Shown: in pieces, positions 1-5,805 of the stretch
Position numbering within the stretch: position 1 is the first letter of the stretch
Layout: every line of letters begins with the position of its first letter
Source: Elusimicrobiota bacterium
Lineage (GTDB): Bacteria; CG03; SLGR01; JAGXOG01
DNA: 7,227 nt
Direction: 5' to 3'
Assembly (NCBI GenBank): GCA_051745145.1
Contig: JBNJDT010000067.1
Span: 1 to 7,227, forward strand
Notes under the pieces: generated by a model
The model's database searches: none
Seen by the model: only the letters and a program-made list of their open reading frames with translations
What the model was told of the DNA's origin: nothing
Position numbers and translations under genes: made by a program

Positions 1-216
1 CATGCTATAGCCGGGTATGACCAGGAAAAAGCAAAGGATGTTTTAAATATACCTTCTGATATGGAGCTTATCACTTTAATTATTGTAGGTAAAAAATCCA
101 GGGATCCGGGGAATAAATTAACTGAAAAACAAAAAAAATCGGAAAAGAGAAGACCTTCGCGTTTAGAAGTAAGTGAATACGTATATTATGAAAAATACGG
201 GAAAGGAGATAAGTAA
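1..216 (+). CDS. Nitroreductase family protein, C-terminal fragment (5' end outside the window)
   Basis: Not in the ORF track. Frame 1 is open from base 1 to TAA at 214-216 and reads HAIAGYDQEKAKDVLNIPSDMELITLIIVGKKSRDPGNKLTEKQKKSEKRRPSRLEVSEYVYYEKYGKGDK. The pattern H-x-x-x-G-[FY]-D...L-x-I-P...G...R is typical of nitroreductase C-termini. The stop overlaps the next start (TAATG). Confidence 0.82.
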   Translation, partial: HAIAGYDQEKAKDVLNIPSDMELITLIIVGKKSRDPGNKLTEKQKKSEKRRPSRLEVSEYVYYEKYGKGDK

Positions 217-731
217 TGGGTAAAAAGATAGCGGCAATAGTTACTGATAAATTTGAAGATACAGAATACAGCGCCCCGGTTAAAGCTTTTAAAAGAGCAG
301 GGCATGAAATTGTAAATGTAGGTATTAAAAAAGAGGGAAAATCCGTTAAAGGTAAGTCAAAAGGCACAAAAATAATAATTGATGAAGAAGTTGAAAATGT
401 TAACTTCAAAGATTACGATGCCCTTTTAATACCCGGCGGCTATTCTCCGGACAAACTGAGAGTAAGTGCCGGTGCGGTAGAATTCGTAAAAAGTTTTGTA
501 AAAAATGACAAACCGGTTTTTTCCATCTGCCACGGCCCCCAGCTTTTAATAACCGCCAGAGTTTTAGAGGGTAGAAAGGTTACCGGATACAAATCCATAA
601 AACAGGATATAAAAAATGCCGGTGCTGAATTTATAGATAAAAAAGTGGTTGTTGACGGGAACCTGGTCTCCAGCAGGAATCCACAGGATTTACCGGCTTT
701 TATTGAAGCGTCTTTAAAAAAATTAAAATAA
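216..731 (+). CDS. PfpI/DJ-1 family (YhbO/YfkM-like) type 1 glutamine amidotransferase-domain protein; putative deglycase/glyoxalase or protease
   Basis: 171 aa with FEDTE (conserved Glu), YDALLIPGG-x-SPDKLR, nucleophile elbow ICHGPQ, and VVVDGNLVSSRNPQDLPAF. AAGGAG at 203-208. Confidence 0.95.
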   Translation: MGKKIAAIVTDKFEDTEYSAPVKAFKRAGHEIVNVGIKKEGKSVKGKSKGTKIIIDEEVENVNFKDYDALLIPGGYSPDKLRVSAGAVEFVKSFVKNDKPVFSICHGPQLLITARVLEGRKVTGYKSIKQDIKNAGAEFIDKKVVVDGNLVSSRNPQDLPAFIEASLKKLK

Positions 732-752
732 AGGAGGAAAAATATTCAGAAA

Positions 753-1895
753 ATGATACGGAAAATAAAGTTGATTTTTAAGAAGAATTATTTCTTCTTT
801 TCGATAATTTTTCTTTTATCCGTCATATTTTTTTCGGTGACCGTTTGTAATGCGGATTCTCTGCCTTTGGAGAAAATTGAGTTACCCCCGGGTTTTAAAA
901 TATCTTTATTTGCAGAAGATGTGCAGGGGGCAAGATCTCTTTGTAAGACTCCCGGGGGCACAATTTTTGTAGGTTCCCGGGGAGCGGGGAACGTATACGC
1001 CCTAACTGATAAAGACGGGGACGGGAAATCAGATAGAAAATTTTTAATTGACGGAGGACTATTTTCCCCTAACGGGGTGGCTTTTAAAGACGGAGATCTT
1101 TATGTGGCCGAGATAGATAAAATTTTAAAATACCCGGATATTGAAGAAAAACTATCTTCGCCGCCCGAACCGGTAGTTGTGAATGATTCTTTCCCGTCTG
1201 AAAGATCTCACGGCTGGAAATTTATTAAATTTTCGCCGGAGGGAAAGCTGTTTATCCCGGTAGGAATGCCGTGTAATGTCTGCGACCCCGAAGATGAGAT
1301 ATTCGGCACGATTATGAGAATGGATCCGGACGGATCAAATTTGGAACTATTTGCCCAAGGCATAAGGAATTCCGTGGGTTTTGACTGGCACCCGGAAACC
1401 GGCAATTTATATTTTACAGACAACGGAAGGGACTGGCTGGGGGATAACCGTCCGCCAGATGAATTAAACAGGGCCCCCGAAAAAGGAATGCATTTTGGTT
1501 TTCCCTACTGCCACGGAAAAGATATACCGGATCCAGAATTTGGAGAAAAAGGTAATTGTGATAATTATGTGCCGCCGGTTAAAGAGCTGGGCCCCCATGT
1601 TGCCGCCCTGGGAATGAGATTTTATACCGGTGAAATGTTTCCGGAAAAATACCAAAACCGGATATTTATAGCCGAACACGGGTCCTGGAATCGCTCCCAG
1701 CCCATAGGTTACAGAATCACCAATGTACTGTTAAAAGATGATGAGGAACCGGAATACAAAGTTTTTGCCCGGGGGTGGCTTGACGGTGGCAATAAATGGG
1801 GCCGTCCGGTTGATATTCAGGAGCTGGATGACGGATCTATGCTTGTATCGGACGATAAAGCCGGAGTAATATACAGAATTGTTTACAGAAAGTAG
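753..1895 (+). CDS. Exported PQQ-dependent glucose/sorbosone dehydrogenase-family beta-propeller protein
   Basis: Basic then hydrophobic N-terminal signal peptide. Family motifs IELPPGFKISLFA, PNGVAF, HGWKFIKF, PCNVC, GIRNSVGFDWHP, DNGRDWLG, PDELN, HGSWNR, GRPVD and SDDKAG. Confidence 0.9.
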   Translation: MIRKIKLIFKKNYFFFSIIFLLSVIFFSVTVCNADSLPLEKIELPPGFKISLFAEDVQGARSLCKTPGGTIFVGSRGAGNVYALTDKDGDGKSDRKFLIDGGLFSPNGVAFKDGDLYVAEIDKILKYPDIEEKLSSPPEPVVVNDSFPSERSHGWKFIKFSPEGKLFIPVGMPCNVCDPEDEIFGTIMRMDPDGSNLELFAQGIRNSVGFDWHPETGNLYFTDNGRDWLGDNRPPDELNRAPEKGMHFGFPYCHGKDIPDPEFGEKGNCDNYVPPVKELGPHVAALGMRFYTGEMFPEKYQNRIFIAEHGSWNRSQPIGYRITNVLLKDDEEPEYKVFARGWLDGGNKWGRPVDIQELDDGSMLVSDDKAGVIYRIVYRK

Positions 1896-1907
1896 GTAGT
1901 TTAAAAA

Positions 1908-1916
1908 TAAGGAGGT
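1908..1916 (+). promoter_or_regulatory. Shine-Dalgarno site for the SHOCT gene
   Basis: TAAGGAGGT, 7 nt upstream of ATG 1924. Confidence 0.8.
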
Positions 1917-1923
1917 AAAATTT

Positions 1924-2160
1924 ATGTATCCGATGCACTACGGAGGGAGTATGGGTTATGGGGGATATAGTGGTATATTCATGTGGGTAATATTTATCAT
2001 TGTAATAGGGCTGCTGGTATACATGGTAGTTAAAGTTTCCAAGTCACCGGAAAATGATGAGAAAAGTAAAGAAAGCGCCCTGGATATTTTAAAGAAAAGA
2101 TATGCGTCCGGAGAAATTTCCAAAGAGGAATTTAAGGAAAAGAAAAAGGATATACTTTAA
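1924..2160 (+). CDS. Small single-pass membrane protein with a C-terminal SHOCT domain
   Basis: Gly/Met/Tyr-rich N-terminus, one hydrophobic helix, then ALDILKKRYASGEISKEEFKEKKKDI (SHOCT signature). Strong RBS TAAGGAGGT at 1908-1916. Confidence 0.9.
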   Translation: MYPMHYGGSMGYGGYSGIFMWVIFIIVIGLLVYMVVKVSKSPENDEKSKESALDILKKRYASGEISKEEFKEKKKDIL

Positions 2161-2184
2161 AGTAATAATAAGAGAGGAGAAATT

Positions 2185-2379
2185 ATGAAAGTAAAAGTAG
2201 ACGAAGATCTGTGTACGGGTTGTGAGCTGTGTGTGGGTATAAGTCCGGATATTTTTAAGATGTCCGGGGATGTAGCGGTAGCTTTTGATAATAACGATCC
2301 GGTTCCCGGGGATATGGAGGCAGATGCCGAAGAGGCGGCATCCATGTGTCCGGTAGAGGCTATTATCATTGAGGAATAA
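2185..2379 (+). CDS. Monocluster [4Fe-4S] ferredoxin
   Basis: 64 aa, acidic. CTGCELC (CxxCxxC) plus distal CPVEAI gives four Cys for one cluster. GAGGAG at 2174-2179. Confidence 0.93.
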   Translation: MKVKVDEDLCTGCELCVGISPDIFKMSGDVAVAFDNNDPVPGDMEADAEEAASMCPVEAIIIEE

Positions 2380-2421
2380 GATACAATTTGTTAAATATAT
2401 AATTATAAAATGAAATTTAAT

Positions 2422-2428
2422 AGGAGGT
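2422..2428 (+). promoter_or_regulatory. Shine-Dalgarno site for the CuA lipoprotein gene
   Basis: AGGAGGT, 8 nt upstream of ATG 2437. Confidence 0.8.
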
Positions 2429-2436
2429 AATTTTAA

Positions 2437-2862
2437 ATGGGAAGACTTAAACTTCTGTTGATACCTATTTTTTTGCTGGCCGTCGGCTGTGAAAATAATC
2501 AAGTTGATACCGGTACTGAACTGAACAAGAGCACAGCCGCCGAAAGCATGGGAGAAGCCAGGTTTTCCGGAACTTTCAAAGACGGGGTAAGAGAAATTTC
2601 AATGAGTGCTTACCAGTTTGCTTTTGACCCGGATGAGGTTCTGGTAAAAAAGGGTGAAAAAGTAAGGCTGGTAGTTAAAAGTACGGATGTTACCCACGGC
2701 ATAGCTATAGAAGATTTGGATATAGACCGAAAATTACCTCCGGGGGAAGAGGTAGTTATAGAATTTACTCCCCAAAAATCCGGGACTCTTCATTTCCACT
2801 GTTCTGTATATTGCGGATCGGGTCACGGGAGAATGCACGGAGAAATTATAGTAAAAAAATAG
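2437..2862 (+). CDS. Cupredoxin-domain lipoprotein with a CuA-type binuclear copper site (CoxII/NosZ C-terminal-like domain)
   Basis: Lipobox LAVG-C (Cys18, 2488-2490). AYQFAFDP start of the cupredoxin fold, DVTHG (His ligand) and CSVYCGSGHGRM (CxxxCxxxHxxM). No CoxII transmembrane helices. AGGAGGT at 2422-2428. Confidence 0.88.
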   Translation: MGRLKLLLIPIFLLAVGCENNQVDTGTELNKSTAAESMGEARFSGTFKDGVREISMSAYQFAFDPDEVLVKKGEKVRLVVKSTDVTHGIAIEDLDIDRKLPPGEEVVIEFTPQKSGTLHFHCSVYCGSGHGRMHGEIIVKK

Positions 2863-3858
2863 TTGAAACTTACGGATAAAATAAAAACGGTTAAAATTAA
2901 AACTTTAATGGGGGGGTTTTTAGTAATACTGGCCGTTGCCGGGATTAGAGAGCTCGGTGTAAAACAGACCCTGCCCCAGCTTGTTATTGCCGTAATTTCG
3001 GCCGGATTTTTAGATTTTGGGATTCTTTTTGTAAAAAAACGAAATTTGATCTTCCCCTCATCCGCCATTATTTCCGGGTTAATAATTTCTCTGGTCTTAA
3101 AACCGGGAACCCAGCCGGCGGTTGCAGTCTTTGCCGCTTCTGTGGCCATATTGTCAAAACACATAATAAAATTGGACAATAGACATATCTTTAATCCTGC
3201 GAATTTCGGGCTCCTGGTCACTGTGCTCATTTTCAATACCTATCTTTCCTGGTGGGGAGGAGTATCTACCTGGCCGGTAGTGGCCATGGGACTGTTAATC
3301 GGAATAAGATACAGGAGATTGCATTTACTTTTTTCTTTTTTTATAACCGGAATAACAGTTATGGGAATTCATTCCCTGGTCCGGGGAATACCTTTAAAAA
3401 ATTCCCTGTTTATGTTAAATTATTTTTTCTTATTTGTAATGGTTGTTGAACCGAAAACTTCGCCGGTAAAAAAAGGGGGAAGAATTATTTACGGAGTACT
3501 GGCTGCTTTATTCTCAACGGGTTTTTTGGTTTTCGACCGTGCTGGCGGCAATTACTGGGTTGCCGGGCTGGCCGGGGCTAATATTTTAGTCCCTGCTATA
3601 AACCGGTTAACATTACCCAAATCCACGGCAGGAAGGGTGGAAGATACTAAAAGAAATGTGAAAATTTGCGCTGAGTACTGCGGGAGTTGCCCCTCCTTTC
3701 CCGATGACGGGGGTGGAATACTTTACTGTGCCCGGGGCAAAAGCAGCGTTGACGCTGGTTCAATAGGGAAGAAAGGGTGTATGTGTCCGGACTGTGAGGT
3801 GCAAAAAGATTCCGGGAGTACGGGGACTTACTACTGTATATACAAAAAGAGTAAATAA
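2863..3858 (+). CDS. RnfD/NqrB-like (NQR2_RnfD_RnfE family) membrane protein fused to a C-terminal Cys-rich DUF2769-like domain, copy 1
   Basis: Multiple hydrophobic helices with SAIISGLII, AILSKH, HIFNPANFG, FVMVVEPKTSP, GRIIYG and ANILVP. C-terminus VEDTKRNVKICAEYCGSCPS...LYCARGKS...KKGCMCPDCEV...YYC has 8 Cys. The TTG start is supported by N-terminal alignment to copy 2. Confidence 0.8.
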   Translation: MKLTDKIKTVKIKTLMGGFLVILAVAGIRELGVKQTLPQLVIAVISAGFLDFGILFVKKRNLIFPSSAIISGLIISLVLKPGTQPAVAVFAASVAILSKHIIKLDNRHIFNPANFGLLVTVLIFNTYLSWWGGVSTWPVVAMGLLIGIRYRRLHLLFSFFITGITVMGIHSLVRGIPLKNSLFMLNYFFLFVMVVEPKTSPVKKGGRIIYGVLAALFSTGFLVFDRAGGNYWVAGLAGANILVPAINRLTLPKSTAGRVEDTKRNVKICAEYCGSCPSFPDDGGGILYCARGKSSVDAGSIGKKGCMCPDCEVQKDSGSTGTYYCIYKKSK

Positions 3859-4001
3859 TAACGGGAAAATAGGTTGTCGTTTCTGATAAATTTAAAATAA
3901 GCCGTTTTGCGAAGGGGTAATGGAAATGAATAAGATATCAAAAGAACATCCGGGTTGAGCTTTACAGCCGCATAGAATTTTAGAAAATTTGGGAGAAAAA
4001 A

Positions 4002-4991
4002 ATGAATAAACTTACTAAAATAAAAACACTAAAAATTAAGCCGGTAATAATGGTCTCTTTACTGATACTGGCGGGAGTGGGTACCGCTACATACGGGTTG
4101 CAGTCAACAGGATATCAGCTTTTAATTGCAGCTGGTGTGGCGGGATTTTTGGATTTTGTATTTATTTTAATGAAAAAGGGGGATTTAGCTTTTCCGTCGT
4201 CCGGTATTATTACCGGTTTAATAATAGCTCTGGTATTAAAACAGGGAACAAATCCGTCAATTGTAGCTTTTGCTTCTACGGTAGCTATATTGTCAAAATA
4301 TATAATAATATATAACAGGGGCCATGTTTTCAATCCGGCAAATTTTGGAATTCTTATCTCCTTACTGGCTTTTGATATAACTCTTTCCTGGTGGGGAGGT
4401 ATTCCTACATGGCTTGTTGTAGCTCTAGGTCTTATGATTATTTTTAAGTATCAGAGAGTATCTCTGGTTATAATATTTTTTATTACCAGTCTGATAGTTA
4501 TGAGTTATTTTACATTACCAAGAGGGGGTATACTGGCTAATAATCTCCGGTCCTTTAATTATTTTTTCTTATTTTTTATGGTGACGGATCCGAAAACTTC
4601 TCCGATAAAAAAGTCTGGGAGAATTTTCTATGGAATAATGGTGGCAGTTTTTTCAGCGGTATTTTTTGCTCTTGATATAATAAATATTAATTACTGGATA
4701 GCTGGCCTGGCCGGTGCCAATCTTATAGTCCCGGTTATAAACTGGCTAACCGTGAAAAGATCTGCTGTAAATCGAGTAGAAGATACTAAAAAGAATAGAA
4801 AAATATGCGCCCAAAATTGCGGTAAGTGTCCCACTTTCTCCCAGATAGACGGGGAAATACTTTTTTGTGCCCGGGGAACAAGCGCTGACAAGACTTTAGA
4901 GAAAAAAGGATGCTGGTGCCCGGAATGTGATGTACAAAAAGCCAGCGGATGTACGGGTACTTATTACTGCATATACGGTGAAAACAGTTAA
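4002..4991 (+). CDS. RnfD/NqrB-like membrane protein fused to a C-terminal Cys-rich DUF2769-like domain, copy 2
   Basis: Colinear paralogue of 2863-3858 with HVFNPANFG, SWWGG, FFMVTDPKTSP, GRIFYG and ANLIVP. C-terminus CAQNCGKCPT...LFCARGTS...KKGCWCPECDV...YYC. GGGAG at 3991-3995. Confidence 0.82.
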   Translation: MNKLTKIKTLKIKPVIMVSLLILAGVGTATYGLQSTGYQLLIAAGVAGFLDFVFILMKKGDLAFPSSGIITGLIIALVLKQGTNPSIVAFASTVAILSKYIIIYNRGHVFNPANFGILISLLAFDITLSWWGGIPTWLVVALGLMIIFKYQRVSLVIIFFITSLIVMSYFTLPRGGILANNLRSFNYFFLFFMVTDPKTSPIKKSGRIFYGIMVAVFSAVFFALDIININYWIAGLAGANLIVPVINWLTVKRSAVNRVEDTKKNRKICAQNCGKCPTFSQIDGEILFCARGTSADKTLEKKGCWCPECDVQKASGCTGTYYCIYGENS

Positions 4992-4999
4992 TTTATAAG

Positions 5000-5005
5000 A
5001 GGAGG
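5000..5005 (+). promoter_or_regulatory. Shine-Dalgarno site for the tautomerase gene
   Basis: AGGAGG, 8 nt upstream of ATG 5014. Confidence 0.8.
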
Positions 5006-5013
5006 AAAATAGT

Positions 5014-5202
5014 ATGCCCACAGTAAAAATTGAAGGACCAAAAATTGATAGCGTGGATAAAAAGAGAGATTTGACAAAAAAAGTTACCGATGCCCTGGAG
5101 GAGACTTACGGTTTACCCCGCCAGGCTTACGTGGTACTTATTAAAGAAAATAAATCGGAGAATGTCTCTGTAGGAGGAAAACTTATAATAGATCAACAAT
5201 AA
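5014..5202 (+). CDS. 4-oxalocrotonate tautomerase family protein (DmpI-like)
   Basis: 62 aa with Met-Pro start (catalytic Pro1), KKRDLTKKVTDA and VLIKENKSENVSVGG. AGGAGG at 5000-5005. Confidence 0.9.
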   Translation: MPTVKIEGPKIDSVDKKRDLTKKVTDALEETYGLPRQAYVVLIKENKSENVSVGGKLIIDQQ

Positions 5203-5217
5203 ATAGTTTTTAAAAAT

Positions 5218-5805
5218 ATGGCGAAAGAAATTAGTATGAACCGTTTTCTCAAAGAGGGTATGCCTTCTTTTGAACTTCCAATTAAAGAAGAACGCCTGGC
5301 CGAGTACCTGGGCAAAATTGTTTCGGCCGCTTCGTTTATTGATACGGGAGGAAAACGGCATACTCCTTTAAAATGCAGAAAAGAAGAGTGCAGGGGCAGG
5401 CTTGTGGTACGCCGTAAACCTCCGGGAAAAATAAGATGGCACTGCCCCGGGTGCAAAGATAGTGGAATTATTTCCGGTTGGGAAGACAGCCCCTGGGATT
5501 ACCAAAGATATAAAAAAGACGGCCCGGGCGATAAAATAATTTCTCTTGTTAAACCCCAAATAGTTAAGTTAAAACTTACCCCGGCCGAATACGATACTCT
5601 TTTCAATATTTTAATTATCGACAATACTGTAGAATCACTACTGTATAAAGCAGAATATGAAGACAACAAAATAATTATCCGGGCGCCGTATGAATTATTT
5701 GAAGAATTATTAGGTTATGTCGGTTCCGAAATCAATCACGACTCCTCTGATGAGAAAAAGCGGATACTGGAAAACATATTTTGTAAAATAGAAGACATTT
5801 TATAA
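5218..5805 (+). CDS. Hypothetical protein with a putative Zn-ribbon
   Basis: 195 aa ORF co-oriented with the cluster. Four Cys in CRKEEC...WHCPGC, followed by GIISGWEDSPWD and an acidic C-terminal domain. No clear RBS. Confidence 0.75.
   Translation: MAKEISMNRFLKEGMPSFELPIKEERLAEYLGKIVSAASFIDTGGKRHTPLKCRKEECRGRLVVRRKPPGKIRWHCPGCKDSGIISGWEDSPWDYQRYKKDGPGDKIISLVKPQIVKLKLTPAEYDTLFNILIIDNTVESLLYKAEYEDNKIIIRAPYELFEELLGYVGSEINHDSSDEKKRILENIFCKIEDIL

Follow-up and report, generated by a model that had tools for sequence, protein, structure and literature searches.

Can a single membrane protein carry electrons from a cytoplasmic ferredoxin to a copper centre on the outer face of the membrane? The question is raised by four consecutive genes at positions 2185-4991 of contig JBNJDT010000067.1 (assembly GCA_051745145.1, Elusimicrobiota bacterium), which encode a ferredoxin, a CuA-type cupredoxin lipoprotein, and two paralogous proteins in which an RnfD-like membrane domain is fused to the cysteine-rich domain DUF2769. 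The window analyzed here is the entire 7,227-bp contig, part of a 1.8-Mb genome that is 92.6% complete. A preliminary description of the window proposed that the four genes form a minimal electron conduit across the membrane, in which CuA replaces the subunit that carries flavin mononucleotide (FMN) in Rnf and Nqr complexes. The reading developed below, to which we give about an even chance of being correct, is that electrons would pass one way, outward, from ferredoxin through DUF2769 and a non-covalently bound flavin to CuA, for the handling of copper or oxidants in the periplasm.

The four redox genes are consecutive and co-oriented, as had been described: all of their open reading frames (ORFs) were found within 2185-4991 on the + strand, with domains assigned by Pfam and NCBIfam searches judged against gathering or cut-off scores. 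The ferredoxin (2185-2379, 64 aa; Fer4_15 62.6 bits against a cut-off of 22.4, Fer4_13 55.2 bits) is of the single-cluster kind, its four cysteines (C10, C13, C16, and C55, the last followed by proline) forming a CxxCxxC...CP pattern. The cupredoxin (2437-2862, 141 aa; Cupredoxin_1 49.1 bits, COX2 32.4 bits) has a signal peptide with the lipobox LAVG-C and a complete CuA ligand set, H87, C122, C126, H130, and M133 (H...C-x3-C-x3-H-x2-M), in alignment columns that are invariant or at least 90% conserved (alignment A6). It is a predicted binuclear CuA cupredoxin; its NCBIfam matches are limited to the C-terminal CuA domains of NosZ and CoxB, and the genome has no other COX2-type domain. The two fusion proteins, paralog 1 (2863-3858, 331 aa) and paralog 2 (4002-4991, 329 aa), are 55-56% identical and match both PF03116 (50.7 and 50.6 bits; cut-off 27.7) and DUF2769 (PF10967, 42.7 and 45.0 bits; cut-off 22.8). 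The membrane domain of paralog 1 ends near 3651 and is followed by DUF2769 at 3667-3840, and the DUF2769 of paralog 2 lies at 4806-4973. The TTG start codon of paralog 1 directly abuts the stop codon of the CuA gene, and Shine-Dalgarno-like sequences lie upstream of the ferredoxin (GGAG), CuA and paralog 2 (GGGAG) genes.

The first step toward an answer is the identity of the membrane domain. Its PF03116 match falls into two stretches, with profile positions 137-177 skipped, and the NCBIfam rnfD models score far under their cut-offs (40 against 400, and 26-28 against 207). We assign it to a widespread short RnfD family of ~245 aa. An AlphaFold2 (AF2) model built on 122 sequences reached a pLDDT above 90 over residues 1-250, and the best Foldseek matches in the PDB were RnfD chains (9eri_D, E 5.5e-7 and TMq 0.63; 8ahx_D; 7zc6_D), followed by NqrB, with urea and Amt channels appearing only at E values of at least 0.04. 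In this model the paralogs have the ten-helix fold of RnfD and NqrB. They share with the known chains (7zc6_D, 9eri_D, 8ahx_D, and 7xk3_B) the PF03116 domain, the FNPA and (D/E)P.T.P motifs, and the two riboflavin-flanking residues (Asn and Asp/Glu), but are ~80-170 aa shorter, lack the loop that bears the FMN-linked threonine, and are not adjacent to rnfA/B/C/E/G.

That missing loop bears directly on how electrons could cross. In RnfD of Clostridium tetanomorphum, as described by Vitt et al. (2022), one FMN is covalently bound to Thr153 on the outer side, and Asn124 and Asp248, the latter strictly conserved, flank a non-covalent riboflavin at the cytoplasmic side. The canonical RnfD of the window's genome, encoded elsewhere (contig C13, 341 bits), contains a loop of ~63 aa with the stretch ..SKATPL.., of the motif type (S/T-G-A-T) whose threonine ApbE flavinylates. 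The loop is absent from both paralogs and from all seven short relatives aligned (A2), and a profile alignment to 7zc6_D leaves its residues 147-183, Thr153 among them, unmatched. In the same alignment, counted by hand, Asn124 falls on the Asn of FNPA (N111) and Asp248 on the Glu of EPKTSP (E196; Asp in paralog 2), and both positions are at least 90% conserved in the 122 sequences. By these alignments the FMN site is lost and the polar residues of the riboflavin site are retained. Beyond the last helix the chain is rich in lysine and arginine (13-15 K+R by hydropathy and charge count), which would place DUF2769 in the cytoplasm, in agreement with relatives that carry an FNR domain; one of these (P0004) has an FNR-type NAD(P)H domain (PF00970 and PF00175) at the same C-terminal position. 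Complex predictions that paired the RnfD-like domain (residues 1-262) with mature CuA scored 0.56, 0.72, and 0.63, and one unrelated control scored 0.50.

In a 37-sequence alignment of DUF2769, the putative point of electron entry, eight cysteines are conserved and five of these are invariant; none of the eight is missing from either paralog. When 1.84 billion representatives were searched exhaustively with phmmer, 71 proteins came up at E ≤1e-3, nearly all of them stand-alone proteins of 69-154 aa and one a 329-aa RnfD-like fusion, and a word-indexed search with the domain gave no candidates. Among the hits of a search of 5.8 billion proteins, PF03116 and PF10967 occurred together only in the window's own two proteins, and the RnfD-DUF2769 fusion has been found only in the window's genus. 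Three other proteins of 460-482 aa (P0140, P0149, and P0153) contain 5-6 tandem DUF2769-like stretches, and 14 partial matches within a 3,928-aa protein (P0121) are probably Cys-rich repeats with no true homology. The literature excerpts that touch on DUF2769 hold a passing mention and no biochemistry.

If the membrane module is a general one, its neighbours in other genomes should indicate what it works with. A family motif scan of species-representative genomes gave 599 stretches, 594 of them confirmed relatives, from which ~1,100 are estimated in the whole collection. Neighbours were counted in the best 80 loci of the 594 confirmed relatives, using crude greedy ORF calls, BLAST clustering, and Pfam searches with 2-3 representatives per cluster, after which partner-family HMMs were run on all ORFs of at least 45 aa. 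A CuA-type cupredoxin was present in 11 loci, directly upstream on the same strand in nine and always within 860 bp, and no CuA hit fell in the 483 kb situated farther than 1.5 kb from a short RnfD module. The full H/C/C/H/M ligand set was found in all ten bacterial partner cupredoxins aligned (A3), and the three archaeal partners aligned (L039, L077, and L085) have a C-x2-C...H pattern instead. A Fer4_15 ferredoxin lay upstream in ten loci, in records of Woesearchaeota and Nanoarchaeota. Recurrent CuA and ferredoxin neighbours, which the preliminary description had named as support if seen beside the fusion, are thus a feature of the short RnfD-like module; the fusion itself does not share it: the sole other fusion, in a genome of the same genus (G015), adjoins a desulfoferrodoxin and a CDGSH/Fer4_19 protein and no CuA. 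No DUF2769 was detected by HMM in the 80 loci.

Other partners recur as well. FMN_bind proteins occur in five loci, upstream within three genes, in Chloroflexota/Thermomicrobiota and CPR records, and ApbE lies directly upstream in four loci from Thermomicrobiota/Chloroflexota records. A 66-aa zinc-ribbon protein with a CxxC...CxxC pattern is found upstream, mostly directly, in eight loci, and a YHS-ArsP permease, again mostly directly upstream, in nine; CitMHS/ArsB (10 loci), Rrf2 (8), Hcp (5), CusA (5), and CusB (4) also recur. That donors and acceptors change while the membrane core stays constant argues in favour of outward electron transfer by the membrane domain, as do the retained riboflavin-site residues and the adjacent ferredoxin. 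The proposal that CuA stands in for the FMN-carrying subunit holds up as far as partner swapping in the 80 loci, the deleted FMN loop, and the retained riboflavin-flanking residues are concerned, and is weakened by the want of a conserved link between CuA and the fusion. In the DPANN loci (L014-L021, L041, L044, L046, and L057) the short RnfD gene follows genes for a 100-aa Fer4_15 ferredoxin and the 66-aa zinc-ribbon protein, which there has a basic tail, and itself stands back to back with genes for DHFR and thymidylate synthase.

The most frequent partner is a secreted protein of ~115 aa, present in 28 of the 80 loci and directly downstream in 27 (within L027-L082; for example L036:6744-7094 and L047:6660-7007). 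Its motifs read AHPPSDI..H..SNP..HYIKKVD..GYCSISGKL, with H23, H45, H53, and C102 invariant. Three representatives had no Pfam match, and a PDB profile search gave only chance hits to lectins at E values of at least 0.4. The ESM Atlas names the family desulfoferrodoxin-like, and this assignment, which has that one basis, is a lead that the protein may be a periplasmic enzyme resembling superoxide reductase (SOR). In an archaeal ESM Atlas cluster, 68% of which carries cytochrome b561 (PF03188), the model matches the ~115-aa domain (TM 0.84 by query); as a lead, this suggests that a desulfoferrodoxin-like domain can also be linked to a different type of transmembrane electron carrier. Around this clade (loci of the L027, L033, L036, L061, and L065 type) a conserved operon runs radical SAM, EamA, CitMHS/ArsB, YHS-ArsP permease, and short RnfD, and continues with the SOR-like protein, Rrf2, an Fe-S protein, and hybrid-cluster protein (Hcp). 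Its gene content suggests an island for metal(loid) or nitrosative stress.

A more specific indication of function comes from the closest relatives. In a quick maximum-likelihood tree, with SH-aLRT support only, both paralogs group with the G015 fusion (SH-aLRT 99) in a clade that is sister to L008 plus G007, then L009. The last three are all CuA-linked, and at least three separately supported branches carry CuA linkage. In L008 the gene order is CsoR-type repressor, YHS, OEP (outer-membrane efflux protein), CuA, RnfD-like, CusB with HMBD, and CusA; in G007 (locus L099) it is CusB, CusA, DUF4190, His-rich protein, YHS-CuA, RnfD-like, and DUF302; and in L009 and L087 it is CusB, CusA, CuA (with YHS), and RnfD-like. 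CusB and/or CusA adjoins the pair in six of the eight bacterial CuA-linked loci outside the window (L008, L009, L051, L079, L087, and G007/L099), the other two being L012 and L068. A YHS domain over cut-off is fused to or adjoins the cupredoxin in five of the eight, and four of five RND pumps tested exceed the CusA/CzcA cut-off of TIGR00914. Since CusB/CusA and YHS stand beside most of the CuA-linked relatives, copper efflux is the probable ancestral setting of the CuA/RnfD-like pair. Copper handling, which the preliminary description left out, is thus pointed to by the operons around the nearest CuA-linked relatives. To our knowledge, neither the CuA protein nor the RnfD-like protein is known as a Cus component. 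In G007, a secreted His-rich protein of 176 aa lies between CusA and the YHS-CuA gene (L099:6229-6759), and the short RnfD gene is followed downstream by genes for a DUF302 protein (L099:8460-8858) and a DsbD-type membrane protein.

How far does this arrangement depart from systems already proposed? The preliminary description had not recognized the combination as a described one, yet its principle is on record: the closest described systems, the two-subunit "Nqr/Rnf-like" ones put forward in 2021 and 2024 as predictions based on genomes and AlphaFold models, comprise an RnfD-like domain without the threonine, a C-terminal PF00175 domain, an FMN_bind partner, and ApbE (Meheust 2021, eLife, PMC8238504; Huang 2024, mSystems, PMC11334425). 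As those systems are described in the two main texts, the window shares with them a stand-alone NqrB/RnfD-like domain without the flavinylated threonine, a C-terminal module proposed to be cytosolic and redox-active, an exported redox partner next door, and the proposal of one-way outward electron transfer. Unlike them, it has a C-terminal DUF2769 with eight cysteines and a separate ferredoxin in place of the NAD-binding PF00175 domain, a CuA cupredoxin in place of FMN_bind (NqrC/RnfG-like) and ApbE, neither of which is in the window, and two paralogous membrane subunits. Judged by domain content, the locus swaps both accessory modules of the predicted system. The words "cupredoxin" and "copper" do not occur in the main text of Meheust 2021 (a count that does not cover its supplementary table of 127 clusters), and "cupredoxin" does not occur in the main text of Huang 2024, where "copper" was not searched for. 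In the literature collection searched, no paper combines "RnfD" and "cupredoxin", and "RnfD-like" was used by Huang et al. only.

The cupredoxin also has known counterparts. It resembles the CuA of cytochrome oxidase (COX) subunit II and of NosZ, and the CuA-only "nosZ-like" cupredoxins that occur in DPANN archaea (Zhang et al., 2024, mBio, PMC10936187), in its fold family, its C-x3-C-x3-H(-x2-M) motif, and its export. Like the hosts of the DPANN proteins described there, the window's host is without oxidase subunit I (no COX1 was found in the genome, at 92.6% completeness) and without a NosZ catalytic domain; unlike them, the window's protein is bacterial, a lipoprotein, and genetically coupled to a short RnfD. 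Neither RnfD nor Rnf occurs in the text of Zhang et al. (2024). What is new here is a bacterial case with the canonical CuA set, the duplicated DUF2769 fusion, the ferredoxin, the copper-efflux ancestry, and a partner clade resembling superoxide reductase.

Taken together, the parts can be arranged into a path. Reduced [4Fe-4S] ferredoxin would give electrons to a metal or Fe-S centre of DUF2769, which would pass them to the membrane-embedded, non-covalent flavin, and the flavin would in turn reduce the binuclear CuA of the lipoprotein at the outer face; the end use would probably be periplasmic chemistry on copper or oxidants. Which cofactors are bound, how the proteins dock, which way the electrons run, and what finally accepts them are all inferred here. 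CuA has a potential of about +250 mV and ferredoxin of about -400 mV. Outward flow is preferred because such a path would be strongly downhill. The closest CuA-linked relatives, lying in CsoR/CusCBA operons, suggest by gene context that the electrons may reduce Cu(II) to Cu(I) and so feed efflux.

Several observations weigh against this reading. First, and at its weakest point, once the periplasmic FMN is gone the riboflavin pocket and an externally docked CuA may lie too far apart for electrons to tunnel in one step. For FMN_bind partners, Huang 2024 (PMC11334425) proposed that the tethered flavin enters the pocket, which solves the problem of distance; a CuA centre cannot enter, so that solution does not carry over. 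Second, Asn90 and Glu185, which lie near FMN in RnfD, align by hand count to non-equivalent residues. Third, the model of DUF2769 is unreliable, with a pLDDT of 45.9 when modelled alone (37-row alignment) and below 50 in the full-length model, and an Fe-S centre in it is a guess, with Zn or Cu(I)-thiolate sites equally possible. Fourth, the copper-efflux setting seen in the nearest relatives (L008, L009, and G007), whose CuA and RnfD-like genes are embedded in CsoR/CusCBA operons, is not found in the window, where no CusB or CusA adjoins. The window's genome encodes three RND pumps, all under the CusA/CzcA cut-off, and in it no CusA-type pump over cut-off, CsoR, or YHS was found; the copper link is therefore by descent only, and the pair here is detached from its efflux setting.

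Finally, the parts separate within the phylum. Among 26 genomes compared (window genome included), DUF2769 was present in three (G000, G015, and G024), a CuA homologue in three (G000, G007, and G024), and short RnfD in three (G000, G015, and G007). G015, of the same genus, has the order GGDEF, desulfoferrodoxin, CDGSH+Fer4_19, and fusion, with no CuA (L090:6509-8686). Its desulfoferrodoxin joins a rubredoxin-like N-terminal domain to an SOR centre; a masked stretch (X) ends the CDGSH gene, and a 61-aa ORF at 7515-7700 may not be real. G024, of the same order, has a Pyr_redox_2/dimerisation flavoprotein of the disulfide-reductase type, a GSDH protein, a stand-alone 71-aa DUF2769, and CuA (L091:6254-8167), and no short RnfD was found in its genome, so that DUF2769 and CuA evidently travel together without the membrane module. 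The parts are thus combinable and patchily distributed in the phylum. The Cus context, with YHS in five of the eight loci, also fits a trafficking of copper without redox chemistry, and the canonical Rnf encoded elsewhere could in principle use these proteins; both points lead to alternatives that have to be weighed.

The main alternative, which we consider unlikely, is that the locus handles copper without electron transfer: the RnfD-like domain would be a channel or antiporter moving Cu(I) across the inner membrane, DUF2769 a cytoplasmic Cys-rich domain that binds metal as the N-terminal domains of copper ATPases do, and the "CuA" lipoprotein a periplasmic acceptor or chaperone. RnfD and NqrB are built like urea/Amt channels, which the fold search also finds, weakly, and carry a Na+ path. 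The gene context of the bacterial CuA-linked loci, with CusB/CusA in six of the eight, four of five pumps over the TIGR00914 cut-off, YHS in five of the eight, and the L008 order from CsoR to CusA, speaks for this explanation, as does the YHS-ArsP permease directly upstream in another nine loci. Against it, the membrane domain has no conserved Cys/Met cluster of the kind typical of Cu(I) pathways, and its conserved residues are those it has in common with RnfD. Relatives fused to FNR or paired with FMN_bind/ApbE make sense only for electron transfer, a ferredoxin stands directly upstream here and is adjacent in ten of the 80 loci, the full H/C/C/H/M set, axial Met included, is conserved, and cation export against the membrane potential would need an energy source that is not apparent.

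Whether the four genes act as one unit depends in part on what surrounds them. The window opens at the contig edge with a 71-aa C-terminal fragment of no matched family (1-216, + strand), overlapped by 1 nt by a DJ-1/PfpI family gene (216-731, +). An exported GSDH-type beta-propeller of 380 aa follows (753-1895, +; GSDH 55.8 bits, plus DUF7133), and between it and the ferredoxin lies a small membrane protein with a SHOCT domain (1924-2160, +; 43.1 bits) and a single hydrophobic segment at residues 18-36; the membership of both in the unit is uncertain. A split clade III L-NosZ, formed by propeller and CuA, was rejected because the L-NosZ model matches the CuA end only (375-479) and leaves the propeller unmatched. 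Downstream of paralog 2 lie a 4-oxalocrotonate tautomerase gene (5014-5202, +) and a 195-aa ORF (5218-5805, +) with a C-x4-C...C-x2-C stretch and no Pfam or NCBIfam family. Closely spaced + strand ORFs thus span 1-5805, with glnA on the opposite strand, and the genes flanking the four share their orientation and are closely packed, 15-57 nt apart except for one gap of 143 nt. The preliminary description had called these flanks unrelated, a claim that is not established, given this packing and the GSDH propeller that adjoins DUF2769 and CuA in G024. Its statement that the window contains no rnfA/B/C/E/G, nqr, apbE, or COX1 gene is borne out by the ORF list, Pfam, and NCBIfam; as the window is a whole contig, absence from it tells little, and the genome's sole ApbE is on contig C51.

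The 143-nt gap before paralog 2 holds a promoter-like site (3961-3988) that is not significant in a promoter scan; a terminator scan of the window found no intergenic terminator-like sites between + strand genes, and Rfam found no RNA families in the window. Stretches of both RnfD-like genes are matched, with 0-1 mismatches, by contigs from RNA libraries (four runs, two studies), and, DNA carry-over being possible, these matches are a weak hint that the locus is expressed. One such contig runs from paralog 2 into the tautomerase gene and others join the tautomerase gene to the 195-aa ORF, which hints that the genes downstream of paralog 2 may share its transcript. None of the RNA-library contigs listed spans the ferredoxin/CuA, CuA/paralog 1, or paralog 1/paralog 2 junctions; cover is missing over much of 1929-2900 and 3134-3374, a gap that proves nothing.

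It is improbable, in our assessment, that there is no single unit here, the genes being merely adjacent stress genes or the short RnfD paralogs being alternative or accessory subunits of the canonical Rnf on C13. The separate canonical RnfD, the separation of parts within the phylum (the G015 fusion without CuA, and CuA with DUF2769 but no short RnfD in G024), and the presence of DJ-1/PfpI, tautomerase, and other stress-type genes in the window speak for such an explanation; it is opposed by the highly non-random adjacency of CuA, with 11 of 11 hits within 860 bp and on at least three branches of the tree, by the CuA stop codon that abuts the start of paralog 1, and by the occurrence of the family in CPR and DPANN lineages, at loci with no other rnf gene in view. 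Inward flow, in which a periplasmic dehydrogenase (the GSDH-type propeller) would feed CuA, the RnfD-like domain, DUF2769, and finally ferredoxin as an ion-gradient-driven reverse Rnf, is very improbable: although the propeller is co-oriented upstream, GSDH directly precedes DUF2769 and CuA in G024, and RnfD is the ion-coupling subunit of Rnf in the account of Vitt et al. (2022), the step from CuA to ferredoxin would by established redox potentials be very large and uphill, the propellers of the window and G024 are only distantly alike (phmmer E 1.7e-14), no GSDH was found in the 80 family loci (phmmer, E ≤1e-3), and the coupling machinery of RnfD is here without its FMN half.

Outward transfer from ferredoxin to CuA could also be one instance of something broader, a view that we hold to be doubtful as a whole. 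A single-subunit, flavin-only wire of the RnfD type would then be a general means of powering extracytoplasmic metal and oxidant chemistry in prokaryotes without respiratory chains, among them Omnitrophota, CPR bacteria, DPANN archaea, and the window's lineage. Its cytosolic donors (FNR domain, DUF2769, ferredoxin, or Zn-ribbon protein) and its exported acceptors (FMN_bind, CuA, or the superoxide-reductase-like protein) would be interchangeable, the reduction of Cu(II) to Cu(I) would be integral to export by CusCBA, and DUF2769, through which the wire would here connect straight to ferredoxin, would be a new Fe-S entry domain.

If the proposed path is real, the locus would be about the smallest transmembrane electron-transfer device yet proposed, with ferredoxin as donor, CuA as acceptor, and between them one membrane protein holding one non-covalent flavin, and it would give DUF2769 its first functional context. 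That the CuA-linked clade lies in CsoR/CusCBA operons suggests that anaerobic copper resistance involves a redox step. The orphan CuA-only "nosZ-like" proteins of DPANN archaea (PMC10936187), a puzzle in the genomics of that group, also gain a candidate source of electrons from this locus. The family is concentrated in tiny-genome lineages without a respiratory chain, where the powering of extracytoplasmic redox chemistry is a puzzle to which a conduit of this kind may be part of the answer.

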